From an uncultured Dehalococcoidales bacterium (lineage in GTDB: Bacteria > Chloroflexota > Dehalococcoidia > GIF9 > AB-539-J10), in assembly GCA_964394145.1 (NCBI GenBank), contig CAYMVL010000034.1:58660-122659 (forward strand): a DNA stretch of 64,000 nt, read 5' to 3'. Every line of letters begins with the position of its first letter. Positions within the stretch are counted from its first letter, which is position 1. This document shows positions 7,277-47,442 of this stretch, piece by piece. A model generated the notes under the pieces. It ran no database searches and had not been told where the DNA came from. It was given only the letters and a program-made list of their open reading frames with translations. The translations under genes were made by a program, and so were the position numbers.

Positions 7277-8873
7277 CTGTGCTCCTGACTATCGGAATCG
7301 TGGCGATAATCTTGGTCCCTTTCCCGGGCTGGGAATCAATAGAACAGATGCCACCTACTAATTTCACACGTTCCTTCATGCCGTATAGGCCAGCACCACG
7401 GCCTCTTCTATCGATGCTCGTGATCTCGCTAACGTCAAATCCCTTGCCATCATCCTCAACGTGTAGGATACATTTATCCGCAGCGCATTCTATTCTAACA
7501 GCGGCATTTCTTGCCTCCGAATGTCTCAGGATGTTGCTCATAGCCTCCTGGGTAATACGGAAAAGCGCCAGCTCACTCTCCGCCGGCAACCGTTGCTCCA
7601 TCTTATGGAACGACGTTGATACATTGATGCCTTGAGAGTCGAGGTCAGCAGCAACGTGGCGAATAGCAGCAGGCAGTCCCAGTGTATCTAGCAAAGTTGG
7701 ACGCAGCTCCCTTATAAGCTTGTTCACCTCGGTGCCTGCATGCACAGCTATGGCCTGGGTCTTTTTCAGTATTTCCTTGATTTCAGCATCCTTGAACTGG
7801 CCCATCTCTATCATTTCGTTAACTGCCTGTAGGTTGAGAGTTAGGGCAGTTAGCTGCTGGCTCGTTTCATCATGTAGGTCTCTGGCGATTCTTTTCCGCT
7901 CCTGTTCCTGAACATTCAGAGCCTGCTGTAGCAGCATCTGATATCTTTGATTCCCCTCGCTCAACTCCGTATTTAGCTTTGCCTGCTCTATAGCAGTGCC
8001 AAGCTGGCAGGCTATAGAGTTGAGTAGGTACATGTCATCGAGGGCGAATTTGCCAGCCGAGTGGCTGGCCACATTCATCACACCTACGACCCTCTCCTTT
8101 GCTTTTAGAGGAACGCTGATGAATCCCTTAAGACCCTCTGCACTTATTAAAGCAGGAAATGCAACATCTGGATTTCTGGAGATATTCTCTAAGAGAGTCG
8201 GCTGGCCCGTTTGGGCCACTTTGCCGGCTATACCCTCACCGGTAGGGACGGATATTTCCGTGGCGTATTTGGCAGAGAGGCCACGGTGTACTTTATAGCA
8301 CCACTTCTGTGTTTTCTCATCAAGGAGCAGTATCCCGCCAACGCTGCCGCCAATAATTTGTAGCACAGTGTCCAGCGCTACGTTCAGTATAGCCTGCAGA
8401 TTATCCAGGCCAGAGACGGCAGATGAGACGCGATTTATAGAGTCGAGGTGATAATGCCGCCTAAGAATCTCTCTTTCCAGCTCTCTTTCTGCGGTAACAT
8501 CCCTTCTCAGTTCGACAACAGCATCGATAATGCCGTGGCTGTCTCTCAGCGGCCACATGCTGATTTTTACGTGCCTATCGCCGTAAGGATGAATTAGCGT
8601 TATTGGACTGCCATTTTGCAGCACCTTGCTCAGAGGGCATTCCCACAGAGGAGGGCCGCATGGTCTATCCCTGCCCTGCAATACATCATAACAGAGCTTA
8701 TCAACAGGTGACTCAGTGTTGTCACATGAGTGGCATATAGCCGAGTTAACAAATCTTACCCGGTATTCGGTATCGATAATTATGAGCTTGTCTTCCAGCC
8801 TATCCGCAACGGGCTCCAGACTTTGAATGAAGTCCGTATGCTGAGAGGTTCTGCGACTTGCCCGCTCTCTCAT
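7245..8873 (-). CDS. Soluble sensor histidine kinase: Cys-rich PAS, GAF, HisKA_3 and HATPase_c domains
   Basis: No hydrophobic segments. PAS region contains CHSCDN...C...C...CP. GAF block follows (GSVGGILLLDEKTQKW...). H-box is RIARDLHDETSQQLTAL (NarX-type). ATPase block HVEDDGKGFD. Confidence 0.85.
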   Translation of the reverse strand: MRERASRRTSQHTDFIQSLEPVADRLEDKLIIIDTEYRVRFVNSAICHSCDNTESPVDKLCYDVLQGRDRPCGPPLWECPLSKVLQNGSPITLIHPYGDRHVKISMWPLRDSHGIIDAVVELRRDVTAERELEREILRRHYHLDSINRVSSAVSGLDNLQAILNVALDTVLQIIGGSVGGILLLDEKTQKWCYKVHRGLSAKYATEISVPTGEGIAGKVAQTGQPTLLENISRNPDVAFPALISAEGLKGFISVPLKAKERVVGVMNVASHSAGKFALDDMYLLNSIACQLGTAIEQAKLNTELSEGNQRYQMLLQQALNVQEQERKRIARDLHDETSQQLTALTLNLQAVNEMIEMGQFKDAEIKEILKKTQAIAVHAGTEVNKLIRELRPTLLDTLGLPAAIRHVAADLDSQGINVSTSFHKMEQRLPAESELALFRITQEAMSNILRHSEARNAAVRIECAADKCILHVEDDGKGFDVSEITSIDRRGRGAGLYGMKERVKLVGGICSIDSQPGKGTKIIATIPIVRSTVDAEDKGTGG

Positions 8874-38721: not shown

Positions 38722-41184
38722 CTATCTCACGGTGATGCCAGTCAGGGCCTGCTGCTGATTACCGTCCAGGTCTGCGACCACAAAGCCCAGTGCATAATCC
38801 CCCGCGGCGGCGTCCAGCGTCTCCCAGGTAAACATTTGCGCTCCAAATGTCAGCGTGCTCCCGTCTTGAAAAACGGTAGCGCTCACCTGCCCGTTGCTGT
38901 CCAGATCCAGCCATTCTTCACGAACCGTGAACCTATCACCGGCGCTGGGAGTTATCTCGCGTGGAGCACTGGCCTCGCTTTCACCCGTGAAACCAAACAC
39001 TTGACGCATCACTCCATTAATGAAGTACAGGCGGGCTTCAAGATGTTGGCCGCTGTCAGCAAAGGTGTATATCCCATCGACTGTATAGGTAGCCTCTTCG
39101 GCATTGCGCCCGTAATCTTCAGGTTTGAACAGGGCTGGTACTGAAGTAGTCCCATCGCTGATTGCGAAAACCACTGGTTCCCAAACGAATTCCAGTGTGA
39201 AGTCACCCTGACCCCAATCAGGATAATAGACACCATTAACCTGCCGAATTTTAGAACTCTCCAGGTAATCCTGGTCAGCTACGAAGATTGAATTGGATGC
39301 CTGGTCGTAGAAACCCACGAACAAATAGATGTGGCCGATGTTGTCACCGCTTATATCGGCACTCAGCGTCACCGGCTGACCAGGGGCAGCTTCTGTATCG
39401 GAAGCGGCAACTGGAGAGACACTGATGCCACCAGCTGCAGGAGCACGCACGGACCCACTGGCTGGAACTACTGCCCCCGTATCACTGTCTGCGAACTTAC
39501 GACCGGAATAATGATAAGCCAGAAAATCATCCCAGAGAGATTTGCCGGCAAAGCGGCTGGCGATGGCTGTATAGGACTCCGCTCCTGTAATCGAGTTCTG
39601 GTAGAGCTGCGAGTTGGGAAAGTAGATTGCCACACCTGTAGCACCTGGTTTCTGAGGGCCATGCTTTTCGGCAATCACTGCCTGCCTAATAGTGGAGAGC
39701 ACGTCGTCAGCTGCCTGGGTGATTTCAGCATTGCTTGTATTTTGCGTGACTATCTGCAAAAAGTTACCAAGGTCAATGTATGAGGGCGGGACTTGGGAGC
39801 CAAAGACACTCGTAAAGCTCTCAGCATAGCTACGGCTGCCAGCTAGTGTCTTCTGGTCAGCCTTCTGGAAAATGAAAGCCAGGTTATTCAAGCTGCTGTT
39901 CAATATACTAATTTTGGACAGGTCGACTGCCGTCAATGTACTGCTCTGCCCTATCTCACGGGCTAATTGCTGGGGAGAAACATCCGTCGGCTGGCCGAAA
40001 AGGCCTCCCAAGGGAGAACCCTGGCTAAGGAAATCTGCCCTTGCGCTGCTATCCAGAATAATCTGATCCTCCTCAATATAGCCCTGCACGATCAACCTGG
40101 AGAACTCTGCCCCATCCATGTCGGGGTTCTGTGTCAACGCCTTCAGAAAATCGGTATAAGCCCAACCCAAGGACGGTTCCACCTCCTGAGAGGCGACCGC
40201 ATAACGGGCGTGTGGCTCCAGAGCAGTAAAAACCTCCACCTGGCCCATTAAGCAAGCATCGAGCCCGATCATTTCAAATTTATCTAACCCTGTATTAGCC
40301 CGAATCTGGTCAAGTGCATCGTCCATCTCATTCAGGTAAAGCATATCGCCCAGGCGAGCCTGCATAGGAATAGTGGTGTCCACACTACCTTTAGGGATGG
40401 AGTCAGTCCAGCCGCCAGGCCAGCCCATCCCATGGTCAGAGAGTATCAGAACATGTTTATCGGCCGGATAGGACTTAATGGCCCAGGAAGCGAAGTCAAT
40501 CAGAGTCTGGCTGGAGGACATGTTGAGTTCACCCAAATTAGCTACTTGCTGCGAAGCTAATCGCCCCAGGTTATCATCCTGACTGATTAGAAAGCATCTG
40601 GTATCTGTCCAGTCGCCGTCTCCGCTGTAAGCTCCATCGTACCGGTCAACCTGCGCCACTATTTTAACCCGATCCGACGCACCTGCTTTTTCGGCTTCGT
40701 TCAAATCAAGATAGATATCTTTTTCCAGTATATTGTCATCGGCATCCTGGTAGAGCATAACTAACCAGGTCTGGTCGGTCCTGGTCGAAGTCTCGCTGGT
40801 TATTTCAGGGTAGTTCGTGACAAATGGGGCAGCCGAGTCCAGACTCGAGATCTGGCCAGTGTCCGAGCCAGTCGAGGGGAGCGTAGGCAGGGAATGCCCG
40901 TCTTCAGGGCTGGGAGTTCCGCAGCTCCGCACTCCAAAAATGATAACAGCTATAATAATCACGATAATAATAGAAACAACTGACATGCAACCCTTGCTTC
41001 CACGAGTAGGTAGCCGACTCCTGATGCTAGATCCTGAGCTAGCACCCATTCCAGCCCTTGCATCTCCGACCTGCCTGCGCTGGGGCGCCTCAGCGCGTTC
41101 GCGCCCACCCTGCGGTGCAGCTTCAGGTTTGCGGCGACGCCGAGCTTGAATTATGCGCTTCTTCCGATCCCCGTTGGAAGTCAT
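38722..41184 (-). CDS. Clostripain-family (peptidase C11) cysteine protease, membrane-anchored, with large C-terminal extension
   Basis: Arg-rich cytoplasmic N-terminus, single TM VVSIIIVIIIAVIIFGV, catalytic His (ILSDHGMGW) and Cys (MIGLDACLMG) in C11 order. 820 aa. Confidence 0.8.
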   Translation of the reverse strand: MTSNGDRKKRIIQARRRRKPEAAPQGGRERAEAPQRRQVGDARAGMGASSGSSIRSRLPTRGSKGCMSVVSIIIVIIIAVIIFGVRSCGTPSPEDGHSLPTLPSTGSDTGQISSLDSAAPFVTNYPEITSETSTRTDQTWLVMLYQDADDNILEKDIYLDLNEAEKAGASDRVKIVAQVDRYDGAYSGDGDWTDTRCFLISQDDNLGRLASQQVANLGELNMSSSQTLIDFASWAIKSYPADKHVLILSDHGMGWPGGWTDSIPKGSVDTTIPMQARLGDMLYLNEMDDALDQIRANTGLDKFEMIGLDACLMGQVEVFTALEPHARYAVASQEVEPSLGWAYTDFLKALTQNPDMDGAEFSRLIVQGYIEEDQIILDSSARADFLSQGSPLGGLFGQPTDVSPQQLAREIGQSSTLTAVDLSKISILNSSLNNLAFIFQKADQKTLAGSRSYAESFTSVFGSQVPPSYIDLGNFLQIVTQNTSNAEITQAADDVLSTIRQAVIAEKHGPQKPGATGVAIYFPNSQLYQNSITGAESYTAIASRFAGKSLWDDFLAYHYSGRKFADSDTGAVVPASGSVRAPAAGGISVSPVAASDTEAAPGQPVTLSADISGDNIGHIYLFVGFYDQASNSIFVADQDYLESSKIRQVNGVYYPDWGQGDFTLEFVWEPVVFAISDGTTSVPALFKPEDYGRNAEEATYTVDGIYTFADSGQHLEARLYFINGVMRQVFGFTGESEASAPREITPSAGDRFTVREEWLDLDSNGQVSATVFQDGSTLTFGAQMFTWETLDAAAGDYALGFVVADLDGNQQQALTGITVR

Positions 41185-42293
41185 ACGGGACCACCAATCC
41201 TTTTTGAGGATTCTCTGTTTCCGTACTGCGTTAAGCCTGAGGCAGCCGGTTCAGATGGTGTAAACAAAGCGTTAAATACTTGTTTCATTTGCTTGTCTGC
41301 ATCGATGAGTCGACATATCAACGTTCTAACCTATAGAAGAGCAACCTTGAGCTTCCCAGGGCAAAAGATAAGCAACTATGCTGTACATAGAGCTCCTTTC
41401 AAGTGTGGTTGATGAGATATTATATAGGTTTATATGAAAATTTCCCATACTAAGTGATGAAGTGGTGGCGTTTTTTGATGAGAGTAGCTCCGGTGTTAAG
41501 AGCTAAGTCCACTATTCATAATGGGTCAGACACTAGGGTCTCCACTATACATGCATTGCCAATTTCTGCTGGTGTTGAAATTGATAGCTACTCACCCCAT
41601 ATCGGTTCACAAAAAGACTGTACCTTAGCTTTCCGTCGCTGCTTATGAAGACTCAATTGCTGGTCCTATTCCGATTTTCAGCAGTAATGTGGCTGCATAT
41701 TTACTGACGAGTCGTCGAACTGAGAGTTAGGATACTTGAGAGAAAACCTTGCTTACGGAAGGAGCCAGAGCGGGCGAGAGAAGACGGTAGCAGGGACCAA
41801 TCCATGCTCTTTTTGGTCTCGTGCCTGCGTTGAGCCGTGTTCTCGTTATGGTGCGGGGAAGGCTCTTATTAGAGCGCCGTCAAGTGTGACTTATTCGTAT
41901 GGGCTGATAACAAGTTGACCGTGGTAGCGCTTTGGCTGACTTACGGCTCAGTTTGAGAGAAGAGGGAAGGGTGATGCTAGCCGTTTGTGTGCTTGTGGAG
42001 TCTATGTGTCACACAGTAGCCTGAAGCCGGCAATTGCTTCAGGGTTTAACTGAAGAAAGAGCAGACCCAGATAAAAGCTCCCATCTATCCTCCAATCAGG
42101 CCCAGTCTTCTTTCAGAGAGGTAAGGTTTCCCTATTTACCTGATTTTACTCAGCTGCGGATGATGGCCAATCCTCAAGTCTACCTCAATAGTCAATGGCA
42201 CAACCGATGAGCATCAAAAGGGCGAAAAATAAGACTTCGCTGGTATTTGCTGCAATATAGTAGGCAGTGCCGGTATGACGAAGCGGACTCTAT

Positions 42294-42659
42294 TTAGGAT
42301 TCTAGTTTACCGGCTTTGTCTTCCTGCCGTATTTCTTCATAGCTATCCAAAATTCTAGCTGCAATAGTGTCAATGTCTTCAAAGCCCCCAGCTTCGTAGT
42401 ACCTGAAATAGCAGTTTTCGGGCGGCTCTGGCTCATGTAATCGTATTAATAGTCTCTTGTGCAGATTTGAAATCTTTCCCAAACGCCAGAGTTTTTTCCC
42501 GCCGGGGCTGACATACGCTATTTCATAGACCCCCGGAGCCTCGGGCACGCTATTAACGTTTTCTTTTGTGAATTTAATCCAGGTCTTCTCTGCTCCCACT
42601 AAAGTTGCCCTCACAAAGGCCTTACATGATGGAAGGTAACCCTCACCATGTTGCTGCAT
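42294..42659 (-). CDS. Small GIY-YIG (URI) nuclease-domain protein
   Basis: PGVYEIAY...GKKLWRLGKISNLHKRLLIRLHEPE fits GIY-(10-11)-YIG...R...H...E. Confidence 0.5.
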   Translation of the reverse strand: MQQHGEGYLPSCKAFVRATLVGAEKTWIKFTKENVNSVPEAPGVYEIAYVSPGGKKLWRLGKISNLHKRLLIRLHEPEPPENCYFRYYEAGGFEDIDTIAARILDSYEEIRQEDKAGKLES

Positions 42660-42980
42660 TATAGCATAGTTGTTTTACCATTATGGTAACCCGTGATAGT
42701 AATTCAGTATTGATGATAAGTATGCCACGAGTGTTACCGAATATCTCAGCGTCCACATCCTGCCTAACTCAATAGCTCAGATTCTGCTGGGTGGACCATT
42801 TTTCTTCATGGATATGCAGACGGTCTTCATCAATTCCACCCTCTATTGACCAAATGGAGAAATTTTGGTAGCATAGTATAAGGCAGCTGACCTTTAAGGC
42901 AGTGAGCTTGAAATTAGAGTAGACGAGTTTTCCGCTTGGATCGGTAACGACTGAGACGGATTAACAGGGTGTGATGCGAT

Positions 42981-43016
42981 GCCCTCTCGGTTGTGCCGAG
43001 AGGGTTTTTTGTTGTT
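42981..43016 (+). terminator. Rho-independent terminator/attenuator in the leader upstream of the pan operon
   Basis: Perfect 9-bp stem CCCTCTCGG/CCGAGAGGG with 5-nt loop, followed by TTTTTTGTTGTT. No annotated + strand ORF upstream. Confidence 0.6.
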
Positions 43017-43168
43017 ATGTACTGTGTCATAAGTGAAGTTCATACAATTGGAGTAGGACGGCATACCGGTAGAAAAGGAACGACGGTCTTTATGGCAATT
43101 CGCCCTGAGCAATGGGCCGTAGCTTGGGTCGATTTCAGTGGCTTGGTAGCAGCAAAGCATCTGGTGTG

Positions 43169-44026
43169 ATGATGAAAGTTGGCTTTATTGGCGCTGGAAC
43201 GGTGGGCACGGCATTAGCAGTCAGGCTTTACAGAGCAGGGTGTGCTGTAGTCTCTGTGTCCAGCCGAAGTCCACACTCGGCACACAAATTGGCTGAGCTG
43301 GTGAGTAATTGTGAAGTCTACCAGAATGGCCAGGGGGTAGCAGATACCGCTGAACTGGTTTTCATCACTACTCCTGATGATGTTATAGCCAAGGTTGTGG
43401 GTGAGATTGGGTGGCATGCAGGACAGGATGCCATCCACTGTAGTGGTGCGCATTCTATTGATATTCTGGAGCCGGCGAGGCAATCAGGGGCCAATGTGGG
43501 TTCTTTCCACCCACTCCAGACATTTGCGAGCTATGAACAGGCTATGGAGAATTTGCCCGGGTCTGCCTTTGCGTTAGAGGCTGAGGAACCTCTATTAACC
43601 AAGTTGAAGCAACTAGCTCATATTTTAGGTGGGAGCTACATAGAGCTTAAGCCAGGGGACAAGGTGCTGTATCATGCTGCAGCCGTTTTTGCGTCTAACT
43701 ATCTGGTGGCTTTGGTCAAGTTAGCCGTGGATTTATGGCAGTATTTCGGGGTGTCACCCGAAGAGGCACTTAAGGCTTTGATGCCTCTGCTCAAAGGTAC
43801 GATAAGCAATATTGAGAGTATTGGTTTACCTCGTTGTCTCACAGGGCCTGTAGCTCGCGGGGATTTGAGTACAATAAGCAAGCATTTGAGTGGCCTTAAA
43901 GCTAGAGACTCTGGTTTATTGACCACTTATAGAGAATTGGGTCTTCAGACTATTCCTATTGCTCTGGCTAAAGGCGGAATCGATGCCCGGAGGGCAACCA
44001 TGTTGGAGGCGTTGCTTAAGCAATAG
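43169..44026 (+). CDS. Rossmann-fold / DUF2520 oxidoreductase (putative ketopantoate reductase, PanG-like)
   Basis: MKVGFIGAGTVGTALA dinucleotide fold. First gene of the panD-panB-panC operon. Start placed at the internal Met (the listed ORF starts at 43112). Confidence 0.65.
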   Translation: MMKVGFIGAGTVGTALAVRLYRAGCAVVSVSSRSPHSAHKLAELVSNCEVYQNGQGVADTAELVFITTPDDVIAKVVGEIGWHAGQDAIHCSGAHSIDILEPARQSGANVGSFHPLQTFASYEQAMENLPGSAFALEAEEPLLTKLKQLAHILGGSYIELKPGDKVLYHAAAVFASNYLVALVKLAVDLWQYFGVSPEEALKALMPLLKGTISNIESIGLPRCLTGPVARGDLSTISKHLSGLKARDSGLLTTYRELGLQTIPIALAKGGIDARRATMLEALLKQ

Positions 44027-44042
44027 ATAAAGGAGAGAGAAA

Positions 44043-44444
44043 ATGAGAACCATGTTAAAGAGCAAGATTCATCGAGCTCGAGTTACACAGGTTAACCTAG
44101 GTTATGAAGGTAGCATTACCATTGACAAATCTCTCCTGGAGGCCAGTGATATCTTGCCGTTTGAACGAGTAGAAGTGCTAAACATCAATAACGGCGCCAG
44201 GTTCAGTACTTACGCTATAGAGGGAGAGGACAGTTCAGGCGTTATCTGCGTCAATGGTGCTGCTGCCAGGCTGGTTGCAAAAGGGGATATAGTGATCATC
44301 CTTTCTTACTGCCAGATTGCGGATGATGAGGCGATGGTTGTCACACCAACCAGAGTTTATGTGGATAGCAGAAACAGGATTATTGAACCCCCGTCTATAG
44401 GTCCTATTTCTGGAAGTCAAAGAGATGTAGTGAGTGCGAGGTAG
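44043..44444 (+). CDS. panD: Aspartate 1-decarboxylase
   Basis: [11 protein letters not shown]...L.YEGSItID. Pyruvoyl processing site G-S. Confidence 0.9.
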
Positions 44445-45294
44445 TAATGCCATGAGGGTTACCATCGCTGAGATAAAGGAAATGAAGCGGAAAGGGGACA
44501 AAATCCCCATGCTCACTGCTTACGATTATGTCACGGCTAAAATAATCGATGAAGCTAATGTACCTTTGATCCTGGTTGGAGATAGCCTTGGTATGGTGAT
44601 GTTGGGCTACGAATCAACTATACCCGTGACTATTGATGAGATGTTACATCATACTAAAGCTGTGGTGAGAGGTGCTAGGAAGGGTCTGATAGTAGGTGAC
44701 ATGCCTTTTATGACCTATCATATGAGTATTGCCGAGACTCTACGCAACGCGGCGCGTTTGATCCAGGAGGGAGGGGCTCAGGCTGTGAAATTGGAGGGGG
44801 GTGAAGTTGTTGCTGAGGAAATAAGGCACCTTACAGAATGTGGCATACCTGTTATGGGGCATATTGGCTTTACCCCGCAATCGATACATCAATTGGGTGG
44901 ATTCAAAGTACAGGGAAGAGCACTAGAGGAAGCTAAGAAATTGTTGCAAGATGCCCTTATTTTGGAGCAGGCTGGCGTTTTTGCTACCGTTTTGGAGTGT
45001 ACTCCAGCACCTCTTTCTAAGCTGATTACCCGGAAGCTAGCTGTTCCCACAATAGGCATCGGTGCAGGACCCTATTGTGATGGACAAGTCCAGGTAATCA
45101 GCGATATTCTGGGGCTTTATACCGATTTTGTCCCCAAGCATTCCAAGCAATATGCTAAGTTGGCGGGGGAAATAGAGGCTGCCGTGGCTGGCTATGTATC
45201 TGAAGTTAAGACGCAAAGCTTCCCCACCATGAAACAGAGCTATGCTATGGATGAGAGTCTCCTTGAGTCTCTTGAGACCCTATCTTCTTCTTAG
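44434..45294 (+). CDS. panB: 3-methyl-2-oxobutanoate hydroxymethyltransferase
   Basis: Family motifs [23 protein letters not shown]. Confidence 0.9.
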
Positions 45295-45328: not shown

Positions 45329-46162
45329 ATGCAGGTGGTCAGGGCTGTCTCTGAGATGGGGGAACTGAGGAGACAACTCAGCAGCTCCGTTGGCTTTGTA
45401 CCTACCATGGGCTATCTTCACGAAGGACATCTGTCTCTGGTGAGACAAGCCAAAGCAGAAAATTCTAGCGTTGTAGTTAGCATTTATGTGAATCCTGCCC
45501 AGTTTGGTGCAAGCGAAGATCTTGTAGCTTACCCACGAGACTTAAACCGTGACCTGGCACTCTTAGAAGAGGAAGAAGCAGACATAGTGTTTGTTCCTCC
45601 TGATGAAGAAATGTATCCGTCCGGGTTCAGTACTTGGGTGGATGTGGAAAGAGTAAGTGAGTGTCTTGAGGGGGAGTCGCGGCCGGGCCATTTCAGAGGA
45701 GTGGCAACGATTTGTGTTAAGTTGTTCAATATTGCCCAACCGGCCAGGGCGTACTTTGGACAGAAGGATGCTCAGCAAGTAATAGTCATAAAGCGGATGG
45801 TAAGCGACCTCAATATGAACCTTGACATTGTGGTTGTTCCTACAGTCAGGGAGAGCGACGGCCTAGCCATTAGCAGCCGTAATATCTACTTACGGCCTGA
45901 CGAACGCCAGTCGGCGGCGGTTCTCTTTGGTGCCTTATCTTTAGCCAAGGAGTTATGGCAGGATGGGGAGAGGGATGCGGACATAATTCGCCGGCAAATG
46001 ATATCGCACATCCAGAAGGAGCCACTGGCACGGATTGACTATGTGAGTATCGCTGATAGTACTACTCTGGAAGAACTGGAACATATTGAGTATATGGCAC
46101 TGGTATCACTGGCCGTTCGTATTGGCAGAGCTAGGTTAATAGATAACATAATCCTGCGGTAA
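45329..46162 (+). CDS. panC: Pantoate--beta-alanine ligase
   Basis: VPTMGYLHEGHLSL HIGH-like motif. Confidence 0.9.
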   Translation: MQVVRAVSEMGELRRQLSSSVGFVPTMGYLHEGHLSLVRQAKAENSSVVVSIYVNPAQFGASEDLVAYPRDLNRDLALLEEEEADIVFVPPDEEMYPSGFSTWVDVERVSECLEGESRPGHFRGVATICVKLFNIAQPARAYFGQKDAQQVIVIKRMVSDLNMNLDIVVVPTVRESDGLAISSRNIYLRPDERQSAAVLFGALSLAKELWQDGERDADIIRRQMISHIQKEPLARIDYVSIADSTTLEELEHIEYMALVSLAVRIGRARLIDNIILR

Positions 46163-46317: not shown

Positions 46318-47442
46318 ATGGGACCAATAAACGTAGCGATTATAGGTGTGGGCAATTGTGCCTCTTCATTGATTCAGGGGGTTCACTACTATAAGAATGC
46401 CGGAGAAGATGAGTTTGTTCCTGGCCTAATGCATGTCAATCTTGGTGGATATCATATATCTGATATAAACTTCGTGGCTGCATTTGATATTGACAAGAAC
46501 AAAGTGGGCAAGGATTTGGCGGAAGCCATTTTTGTCCCGCCTAATAACACGATCAAGTTTTGCGATGTGCCGGATATTGGCGTCCGGGTTCAACGAGGCA
46601 TGACACATGATGGTCTGGGCAAGTATCTTTCTCAAGTGATTACCAAGGCGTCAGGGCCAACTGCTGATGTGGTAGGCATACTTAAGGAGACCAAAACAGA
46701 CGTAGTGCTCAATTATTTGCCTGTAGGCAGCGAGGAAGCGACCAAGTGGTATGTAGAGCAGGTACTGGCTGCCGGTTGTGGCTTGATTAATTGTATGCCG
46801 GTTTTTATCGCTCGTGAACGCTATTGGCAGGATAGGTTTGCCAAGAGGGGACTGCCTGTTATCGGTGATGACATAAAGTCTCAGGTCGGCGCGACCATAA
46901 CCCATCGGGTTTTAACCAGGCTTTTTCGTGACCGCGGGGTTAGATTGGAACGAACGTATCAGCTTAACTTTGGTGGTAATACTGATTTCTATAATATGCT
47001 GGAGCGGGAGCGTTTGGAGTCCAAGAAGATTTCCAAGACTAACGCTGTTACTTCCCAGCTTGACTATGATATCGGCTCTGATAATATCCATGTTGGTCCC
47101 AGCGACTACGTGCCATGGCTGGCTGACCGCAAATTCTGTTATATAAGGATGGAAGGTCGTACGTTTGGTGATGTTCCACTAAACTTGGAATTGAAGATGG
47201 AAGTATGGGATAGCCCTAATTCGGCTGGGGTGGTTATCGATGCTTTAAGGTGCTGTAAATTAGCTTTAGATCGGAGTATCAGTGGGACTATAGTTGCTCC
47301 CGCTGCGTACTTTATGAAATCGCCGCCAATTCAATATTCGGACGACGAGGCGCGCATGAAGACGGAGGCATTCATTAACGGGGAAGAACAGGAAGGCCCC
47401 GTTTCATTGCCTGAACCGCAACTAGCCGAGATTAAAGTCTAA
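46318..47442 (+). CDS. ino1: myo-Inositol-1-phosphate synthase (short archaeal/bacterial type)
   Basis: [19 protein letters not shown] fold. 374 aa. Confidence 0.75.

Follow-up and report, generated by a model that had tools for sequence, protein, structure and literature searches.

The window, by which we mean the whole 64-kb stretch of DNA that was analysed, carries panD, panB and panC on its + strand (Pfam and NCBIfam matches of 2.6e-48 to 6.2e-115), preceded by a gene encoding a DUF2520 protein. All four genes lie 3' of a pan motif and on the same strand as this motif, and the same arrangement was found in 70 related loci. The genes at and around the locus are the following.

38722–41184, − strand: 820-aa clostripain-family (Peptidase_C11) protein, further upstream
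42294–42659, − strand: divergent upstream gene, 121-aa protein with a weak, sub-threshold DUF7508 match
43017 (ATG)–43169 (TGA), + strand: 50-codon ORF, putative remnant of a Peptidase_S58 (DmpA-like) gene, by homology to relatives L001–L003
43169–44026, + strand: DUF2520/Rossmann-like oxidoreductase, first intact operon gene (Pfam DUF2520, 5.5e-35; start by homology to L003)
44043–44444, + strand: panD (Pfam/NCBIfam)
44434–45294, + strand: panB (Pfam/NCBIfam)
45329–46162, + strand: panC (Pfam/NCBIfam)
46318–47442, same strand as panC: inositol-3-phosphate synthase gene (NCBIfam TIGR03450, 1.1e-162, below the model cut-off), 155 nt after panC

Translated from the ATG at 43169, the DUF2520 protein begins MMKVGFIGAGTVG, and its nearest solved structures are those of uncharacterised proteins (2i76, 3d1l). 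A published description (PMC4572677) treats DUF2520 proteins as homologues of FTT1388, a ketopantoate reductase from Francisella, and cites the PanG paper of Miller et al. 2013; judged by this family assignment, a ketopantoate reductase of the PanG type is the probable identity of the window protein. With such a reductase homologue in first position, the operon probably encodes the whole pantothenate pathway.

The gap between the leader terminator described below and the operon is filled by the 50-codon ORF at 43017–43169, the stop codon of which overlaps the ATG of the DUF2520 gene. The stretch 43006–43146 and the beginning of an intact Peptidase_S58 gene in L001–L003 (Pfam assignment for the L003 ORF) share about 70% identity, and the alignment with these sequences jumps from the 5' end of the S58 gene to the start of DUF2520. 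From this alignment, we conclude that the gap before the first gene is the remnant of an S58 deletion. Such a deletion would account for the distance of approximately 100–160 nt between the terminator and the first operon gene, counted to the ATG at 43112 or to the homology-supported start at 43169, which is the distance reported earlier in a reading made from the sequence only. Together with the homology to the relatives, the remnant places the gene start at 43169 and not at the ATG at 43112 chosen by the ORF finder. In L001–L003, the closest relatives, the pan leader is followed first by the intact S58 gene (~328 aa) and then by DUF2520, and L005 and L008 have the same S58 N-terminal sequence right after their terminators. 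Release of beta-alanine from peptides is one possible reason for the presence of an S58 peptidase under pan control. Two other ORFs of this region have no Pfam match: an 88-aa ORF on the − strand (42894–43160), which looks spurious, and a + strand ORF at 42993–43169, which corresponds to the S58 remnant.

Promoter and pan motif of the leader

The leader contains the following features, all on the + strand.

42846–42874, + strand: sigma-70-like promoter (-35 TTGACC at 42846–42851; 17-nt spacer; extended -10 TG at 42866–42867; -10 TAGCAT at 42869–42874)
42882–42908, + strand: pan motif hairpin 1 (P1) according to the Rfam alignment, with bulged A42890 (5' side) and A42905 (3' side)
42909–42931, + strand: linker between P1 and P2, 23 nt, unconserved, its length and sequence varying in the alignments
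42932–42959, + strand: pan motif hairpin 2 (P2), CCGCUUGG-A-UCG GUAA CGA-CUGAG-A-CGG, with its 3' strand at 42948–42959
42948–42993, + strand: proposed antiterminator, a candidate pairing of the P2 3' strand (42948–42959) with the terminator 5' arm (42982–42993)
42966–42985, + strand: small lineage-specific hairpin AGGGUGU/AUGCCCU seen in partial-transcript folds, overlapping the first bases of the terminator 5' arm
42981–43016, + strand: intrinsic terminator (stem 42982–42990/42996–43004, loop 42991–42995, U-tract 43005–43010, then GUUGUU)

The sequence-only reading had assigned the regulatory element to 42660–43111; this interval does contain it, and is too wide, as the functional part extends from about 42846 to 43016. 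It had also suspected an element of the pan-motif type and proposed an Infernal search with the Rfam models. In that search of the full window (Rfam 15), the pan motif RF01749 was found at 42882–42963 on the + strand with 37.4 bits against a gathering score of 36.2, and it was the sole family to reach its threshold in the window, which has no tRNA or tmRNA matches either. Matches to snoRNA and lncRNA families with E values of 0.3–1.8 were regarded as chance. The E value of the pan match was 0.0077 in the scan of the whole window and 0.00012 in a 1-kb scan, which gave no other credible match. Its margin is just 1.2 bits over the threshold, at the lower end of the 36.3–48.1 bits obtained for relatives, due to a mismatch in P1 (A42885 × G42904) that adjoins the 3' bulge. 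P1 of the window has A × G where relatives have C-G, and G-U where relatives have A-U (42885/42904), which leaves the window copy with the lowest Rfam score among its close relatives. Together with the S58 deletion, this mismatch may indicate some decay of the window leader. In P2, the bulged A residues are A42940 and A42956 and all 11 pairs are standard in the Rfam alignment. Both hairpins were recovered by unconstrained minimum free energy (MFE) folding, and they are arranged in tandem, P1 then P2, each with both bulged A residues, as in most members of the pan motif family.

The pan motif was described by Weinberg et al. 2010 (Genome Biol 11:R31, PMC2864571; Rfam RF01749), with a range comprising Chloroflexi, Firmicutes and delta-proteobacteria. 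The window copy shares with it the tandem hairpins with two bulged A residues each, the core GGAUC...GAC.GAGAC.GG, the position in the 5' leader of a panB/panC/panD operon and the occurrence in Chloroflexi, one of the three reported phyla; it differs in nothing essential, having only the A × G mismatch in P1 and the marginal score. It is near-identical to the rows of the three Dehalococcoides genomes in the published alignment (PMC2864571), which share with it both the P1 variant GCCACCGACC...GGCGGUGAGC and the P2 sequence CCGCUUGGAUCG...CGGCCGAGACGG. Because of this match in both hairpins, we consider its family membership firm, and on alignment evidence the window adds one more copy to the known pan motif family. 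The Dehalococcoidales (Chloroflexota) lineage is already represented in the RF01749 seed alignment.

The promoter is the only + strand promoter-like site found in a scan of 41500–44500, and ends 7 nt before P1. Transcription is predicted to start at approximately 42881–42882, at the first base of P1. In the same scan, there was no second promoter-like site between the terminator and the operon.

Conservation of the leader in related loci

With PanB, 80 related loci were retrieved, almost all from Dehalococcoidales/Dehalococcoidia MAGs, at 59–86% identity, which places the window in this lineage of Chloroflexota. Of the 20 closest loci, 17 had a match above the gathering score of the Rfam pan model 5' of panB, and with a covariance model built from these matches the motif was found 5' of panB, and on its strand, in 70 of 81 sources. 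In nine of the 11 sources without the motif, the sequence 5' of panB is shorter than 1.7 kb, and the leader usually lies further away than this. L058 and L078, and possibly L051, have 1.7–4 kb 5' of panB and no pan motif match; some Dehalococcoidia may have lost the leader or rearranged the operon. Downstream of panB, a c-di-GMP-II riboswitch (55.8 bits) was found in L020 at 8147–8230, approximately 3.3 kb 3' of panB, and in several close relatives (3' ends of L004 and L006–L009) a 23S rRNA gene, absent from the window, starts ~1–4 kb 3' of panB.

Over the 70 sequences, the pan structure is 96.4% paired, with double changes in 14 of 21 pairs, and none of 500 shuffles reached the observed values; the related leaders share ancestry, so that such counts represent non-independent events. 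The two hairpins evolve differently. P1 has changes on both sides in 8 of 10 pairs among the 70 relatives, and P2 is 97.6–99.5% paired with a nearly invariant sequence; in the 18 closest sequences, 7 of 11 pairs are invariant in P2 versus 2 of 10 in P1. A second pairing partner of the P2 strands would lead one to expect such a far stronger sequence conservation of P2.

The promoter is conserved as well: a TTGAC-N-TAnnnT arrangement lies at most 55 nt 5' of the motif in 56 of the 70 related loci, and its -10 element usually ends 5–7 nt before the motif. As far as these alignments can tell, the promoter, the pan hairpins and the terminator are conserved as one unit. This corroborates the earlier proposal of a cis-regulatory leader or attenuator, as motif and terminator are kept together in orthologous leaders and the promoter lies directly 5' of the motif. 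That proposal had named two observations that would speak against it. One, orthologous leaders devoid of conserved structure, does not apply, with the structure kept in 70 of 81 sources; the other, transcripts starting 3' of the terminator, is contradicted at the level of sequence by a promoter-like site that is present only upstream of the motif.

Intrinsic terminator

The textbook + strand terminator claimed previously is present exactly as described, with a 9-bp stem of 42982–42990 (CCCTCTCGG) and 42996–43004 (CCGAGAGGG), the 5-nt loop TTGTG and six T residues (43005–43010) followed by GTTGTT. The free energy of its 9-bp core is -17.8 kcal/mol. In a consensus scan, which gave a stem of 11 pairs (7 of them G-C) at 42981–43005, it was the strongest of five terminator-like sites in 41500–44500. 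This number of sites compares with 2.9 ± 1.5 in shuffled sequences and is not significant as a count alone. The fold of the 145-nt leader has a z-score of -2.84 and is more stable than 198 of 200 shuffles. Direct reading of the sequence revealed no T-run after the hairpin on the − strand, and the terminator would thus work in one direction. The reported lack of an upstream + strand ORF was borne out for ORFs of at least 40 aa, none of which occurs 5' of the terminator in 42210–42993.

The terminator follows the end of the pan motif by 18 nt. A hairpin with a U-tract occurs at the same place in 60–65 of 70 orthologous leaders, in almost all of them 11–35 nt 3' of the motif; the higher count is that of terminators predicted after the motif (65 of 70), and the lower that of an anchored analysis, which yielded 60 hairpins with 58 distinct sequences. 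Across relatives, the terminator is 99.4% paired, with compensatory changes in 5 of 8 core pairs. In addition, RNAalifold returned exactly P2 and the terminator from a MAFFT alignment of 40 leaders that spanned P2 to the U-tract and had been fitted to no structure beforehand. Its constant position, pairing and compensatory changes in orthologous leaders lead us to conclude that the terminator is more than a chance feature.

Proposed attenuation mechanism

Taken together, we propose, at a probability of about 70%, that this stretch serves as 5' leader to a panG-like/panD/panB/panC operon and that its pan motif and terminator act as an OFF-type transcription attenuator. Transcription would start at approximately 42881, and the first 82 nt would fold into the pan motif with its two tandem bulged-A hairpins. 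Two partners would then compete for the P2 3' strand (CGACUGAGACGG): the P2 5' strand, with which it makes P2, and the pyrimidine-rich terminator 5' arm (CCCUCUCGGUUG), with which it would make an antiterminator. A factor that stabilises the pan hairpins would leave the terminator 5' arm free, so that the terminator forms, a transcript of ~130 nt is released and the operon is OFF; without the factor, the terminator 5' arm would invade P2, the antiterminator would form and RNA polymerase would continue into the operon (ON). Because P2 and the terminator are compatible and the antiterminator excludes both, stabilised P2 should cause termination, which in this model should amount to feedback repression of a biosynthetic operon. 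The switching, its direction and the nature of the factor are what we infer here; candidates for the factor are a dimeric protein, as the discoverers of the motif suggested, or a metabolite of the pantothenate/CoA pathway.

The original description of the pan motif gave neither an expression platform nor a mechanism (PMC2864571). The link to a terminator and the proposed competition between P2 and an antiterminator come from the present comparison of at least 65 leaders. Several Clostridium rows of the published alignment (PMC2864571, supplement file 11) have a hairpin GUAUCAC...GGAGGUGAUAC after the motif and no terminator. A DUF2520-like gene would have its ribosome-binding site occluded by this hairpin, so that the pan family seems to use both transcriptional and translational platforms.

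The case for the antiterminator, as we propose it, rests on conserved complementarity and not on covariation. In the window, the helix comprises 11 pairs with one C × C mismatch (42957 × 42984). Alternative folding, which had been suggested earlier as a check on an attenuator, gave a divided answer: an antiterminator helix is predicted, at -12.5 kcal/mol versus -11.7 kcal/mol for P2 (parameters for the bulged-A helices are approximate), and in the partial transcript of the window the P2 state, together with the hairpin at 42966–42985, is predicted to be 3.5 kcal/mol more stable than the antiterminator state even without a factor. The default of the window leader may therefore lean towards termination. 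Antiterminator helices formed by the spacer, of the kind of the hairpin at 42966–42985, were rejected as a family feature, as spacer-to-terminator pairing in 65 leaders gave -4.86 kcal/mol versus -4.67 kcal/mol with shuffled spacers; the hairpin is thus probably not a feature of the family.

Among relatives, the terminator 5' arm is almost always CCYUYYC, which apart from one constant C × Y mismatch is complementary to GAGACGG, the invariant 3' strand of P2. The pattern CCYUYYY occurs in the 5' arm of 50 of 53 pan-associated terminators; of 48 further terminators from the same 630 kb of DNA, 4 have it. Duplexes with the P2 3' strand have a mean energy of -9.2 kcal/mol for pan terminators, compared with -4.0 kcal/mol for unrelated terminators and -4.6 kcal/mol for the 3' arms of the pan terminators themselves. 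With the transcript folded up to the terminator loop and its P2 5' strand blocked, 51 of 65 leaders had the antiterminator helix in their MFE structure, and the helix was part of the unconstrained partial-transcript MFE in roughly half of the leaders. In the core of the helix, complementarity is conserved at 87–100%. Register-anchored counts were as follows in leaders selected for a CCYUYYY match, a selection that by itself determines what pairs with G88, G87 and A85 and allows nothing but pyrimidines across from G84, A83 and G82.

G88-C: 95% paired
G87-C: 100% paired
C86 × Y: 0% paired
A85-U: 100% paired
G84-Y: 100% paired
A83-U: 88% paired
G82-Y: 95% paired
Pairs beyond G82: 64–78% paired

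The outer extension pairs are weak (75% paired versus 69% in shuffles). There was no covariation in the antiterminator: both of its strands are nearly invariant and the pair counts equal those of shuffles, which makes this a test without power. Of the three lineages in which the P2 3' strand has changed, only one retains complementarity at the altered position. Two features of the terminator fit the model: its core pairs show no orientation flip in 60 leaders, in contrast to the flanking pairs, which do flip, and the sole freely covarying core position (C-G in 19, U-A in 19) is the mismatched position of the antiterminator. Outside the Chloroflexota, inspection by eye of the published alignment (PMC2864571) showed that in Bacillus subtilis, B. 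amyloliquefaciens and B. licheniformis the conserved 3'-terminal tail of the pan motif, AGAGGGAU, complements the terminator 5' arm AUCCUUCU, and that in the B. cereus group CAGAGGG complements CCCUUCUG. By this complementarity, the Bacillus pan leaders have the same design in a shifted register.

Alternative explanations

The hairpins and the terminator could be genuine parts of a leader that has no RNA antiterminator. Termination would then be modulated by a hairpin-bound protein, through contact with RNA polymerase or NusA or as a roadblock, with the CCYUYYC arm kept by some other constraint, or else the leader would be a constitutive partial attenuator. Such an explanation agrees with the lack of covariation in the antiterminator, with the inconsistent compensation in lineages with variant P2, with the thermodynamic preference for the P2 state in the window and with the discoverers' preference for a dimeric protein-binding site. 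However, the 5' arm complements the P2 3' strand far more often than unrelated terminators do, the terminator core lacks the orientation flips of its flanking pairs, the one freely covarying core position coincides with the antiterminator mismatch, and matching complementarity is found in Bacillus leaders, so that we regard a leader without an antiterminator as unlikely.

Far less probable is the independent sRNA that the sequence-only reading had offered as an alternative, in which the ~130-nt terminated transcript acts in trans and the pan operon has its own promoter. The discrete promoter-to-terminator unit of ~130 nt would suit an sRNA, as would the 155-nt gap before the first intact gene in the window, but this gap appears to be the remnant of the deleted S58 gene, the start codon of which lies ~10 nt after the terminator in relatives, and in relatives generally the first gene starts ~10–60 nt after it. 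The lack of a promoter-like site between terminator and operon further disfavours an sRNA, as do the occurrence of the motif before pan genes in three phyla and its single copy in the 64-kb window. Attenuation mediated by a ribosome, with translation of a short upstream ORF controlling the terminator, has the lowest probability of all and was rejected: although an ATG-initiated ORF of at least 10 codons starts in the leader of 41 of 65 relatives, a Shine-Dalgarno-like sequence precedes such an ORF in only 5 of the 65, so that no conserved upstream ORF with a Shine-Dalgarno sequence was found in these leaders. Moreover, the would-be coding spacer is unconserved in sequence and length, and what is conserved consists of RNA helices that show compensatory changes.

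Signal and comparison with known systems

As to the signal sensed by an attenuator of the proposed kind, the discoverers favoured a dimeric protein-binding site (PMC2864571), and in-line probing of a Geobacter pan RNA showed no modulation by 1 mM pantothenate, CoA or beta-alanine, with caveats concerning the construct. The pan RNAs of delta-proteobacteria are typically single hairpins. In the literature searched (ligand, protein and Term-seq studies), we found no ligand, binding protein or mechanism demonstrated since 2010, and the later mentions of the pan motif in searchable literature are confined to transcriptome catalogues. According to a 2022 review, no CoA or pantothenate riboswitch is known, and CoA is among the conspicuous cofactors without one; the pan motif is absent from a 2024 study on B. 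subtilis CoA synthesis. It is conceivable, if rather doubtful, that the pan hairpins are a direct metabolite sensor, and thus the missing riboswitch of the pantothenate/CoA pathway, or that the leader is autoregulated by an enzyme of the operon, e.g. PanC, which is homodimeric. A sensor of this type might recognise, for example, pantoate, ketopantoate, 4'-phosphopantetheine or acyl-CoA, or might need both hairpins, and would act via the same competition between P2, antiterminator and terminator.

As an annotation, the leader is routine, since a standard Rfam scan labels it and Dehalococcoides copies are already in the published alignment. The ~65 Dehalococcoidia leaders are of importance because they provide a concrete model, testable by mutation, in which P2 and the antiterminator compete for the P2 3' strand. 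The same logic is visible in B. subtilis, where genetics is easy, and this turns the question of the pan motif signal into a termination or reporter assay. If true, the metabolite-sensor reading would supply the missing pantothenate/CoA-pathway riboswitch.

The proposed logic resembles that of two known systems. In the PyrR-dependent pyr attenuators of Bacillus, a protein-stabilised anti-antiterminator hairpin allows the terminator to form, which switches the biosynthetic operon off, and in the pan leader a stabilised hairpin would likewise sequester the antiterminator strand. The pan leader differs from the pyr attenuators in RNA sequence and structure, no PyrR-type protein is implicated, and the Rfam PyrR model had no match. 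In transcriptional OFF riboswitches such as those for TPP and SAM-I, the 3' strand of the aptamer closing helix is shared with the antiterminator, and the pan leader as proposed here would have the same logic of sensor helix, antiterminator and terminator, with a cofactor biosynthesis operon downstream. The pan sensor differs from TPP and SAM-I riboswitches in that the sole published binding tests were negative and in that it consists of two simple hairpins and has no multi-helix junction.
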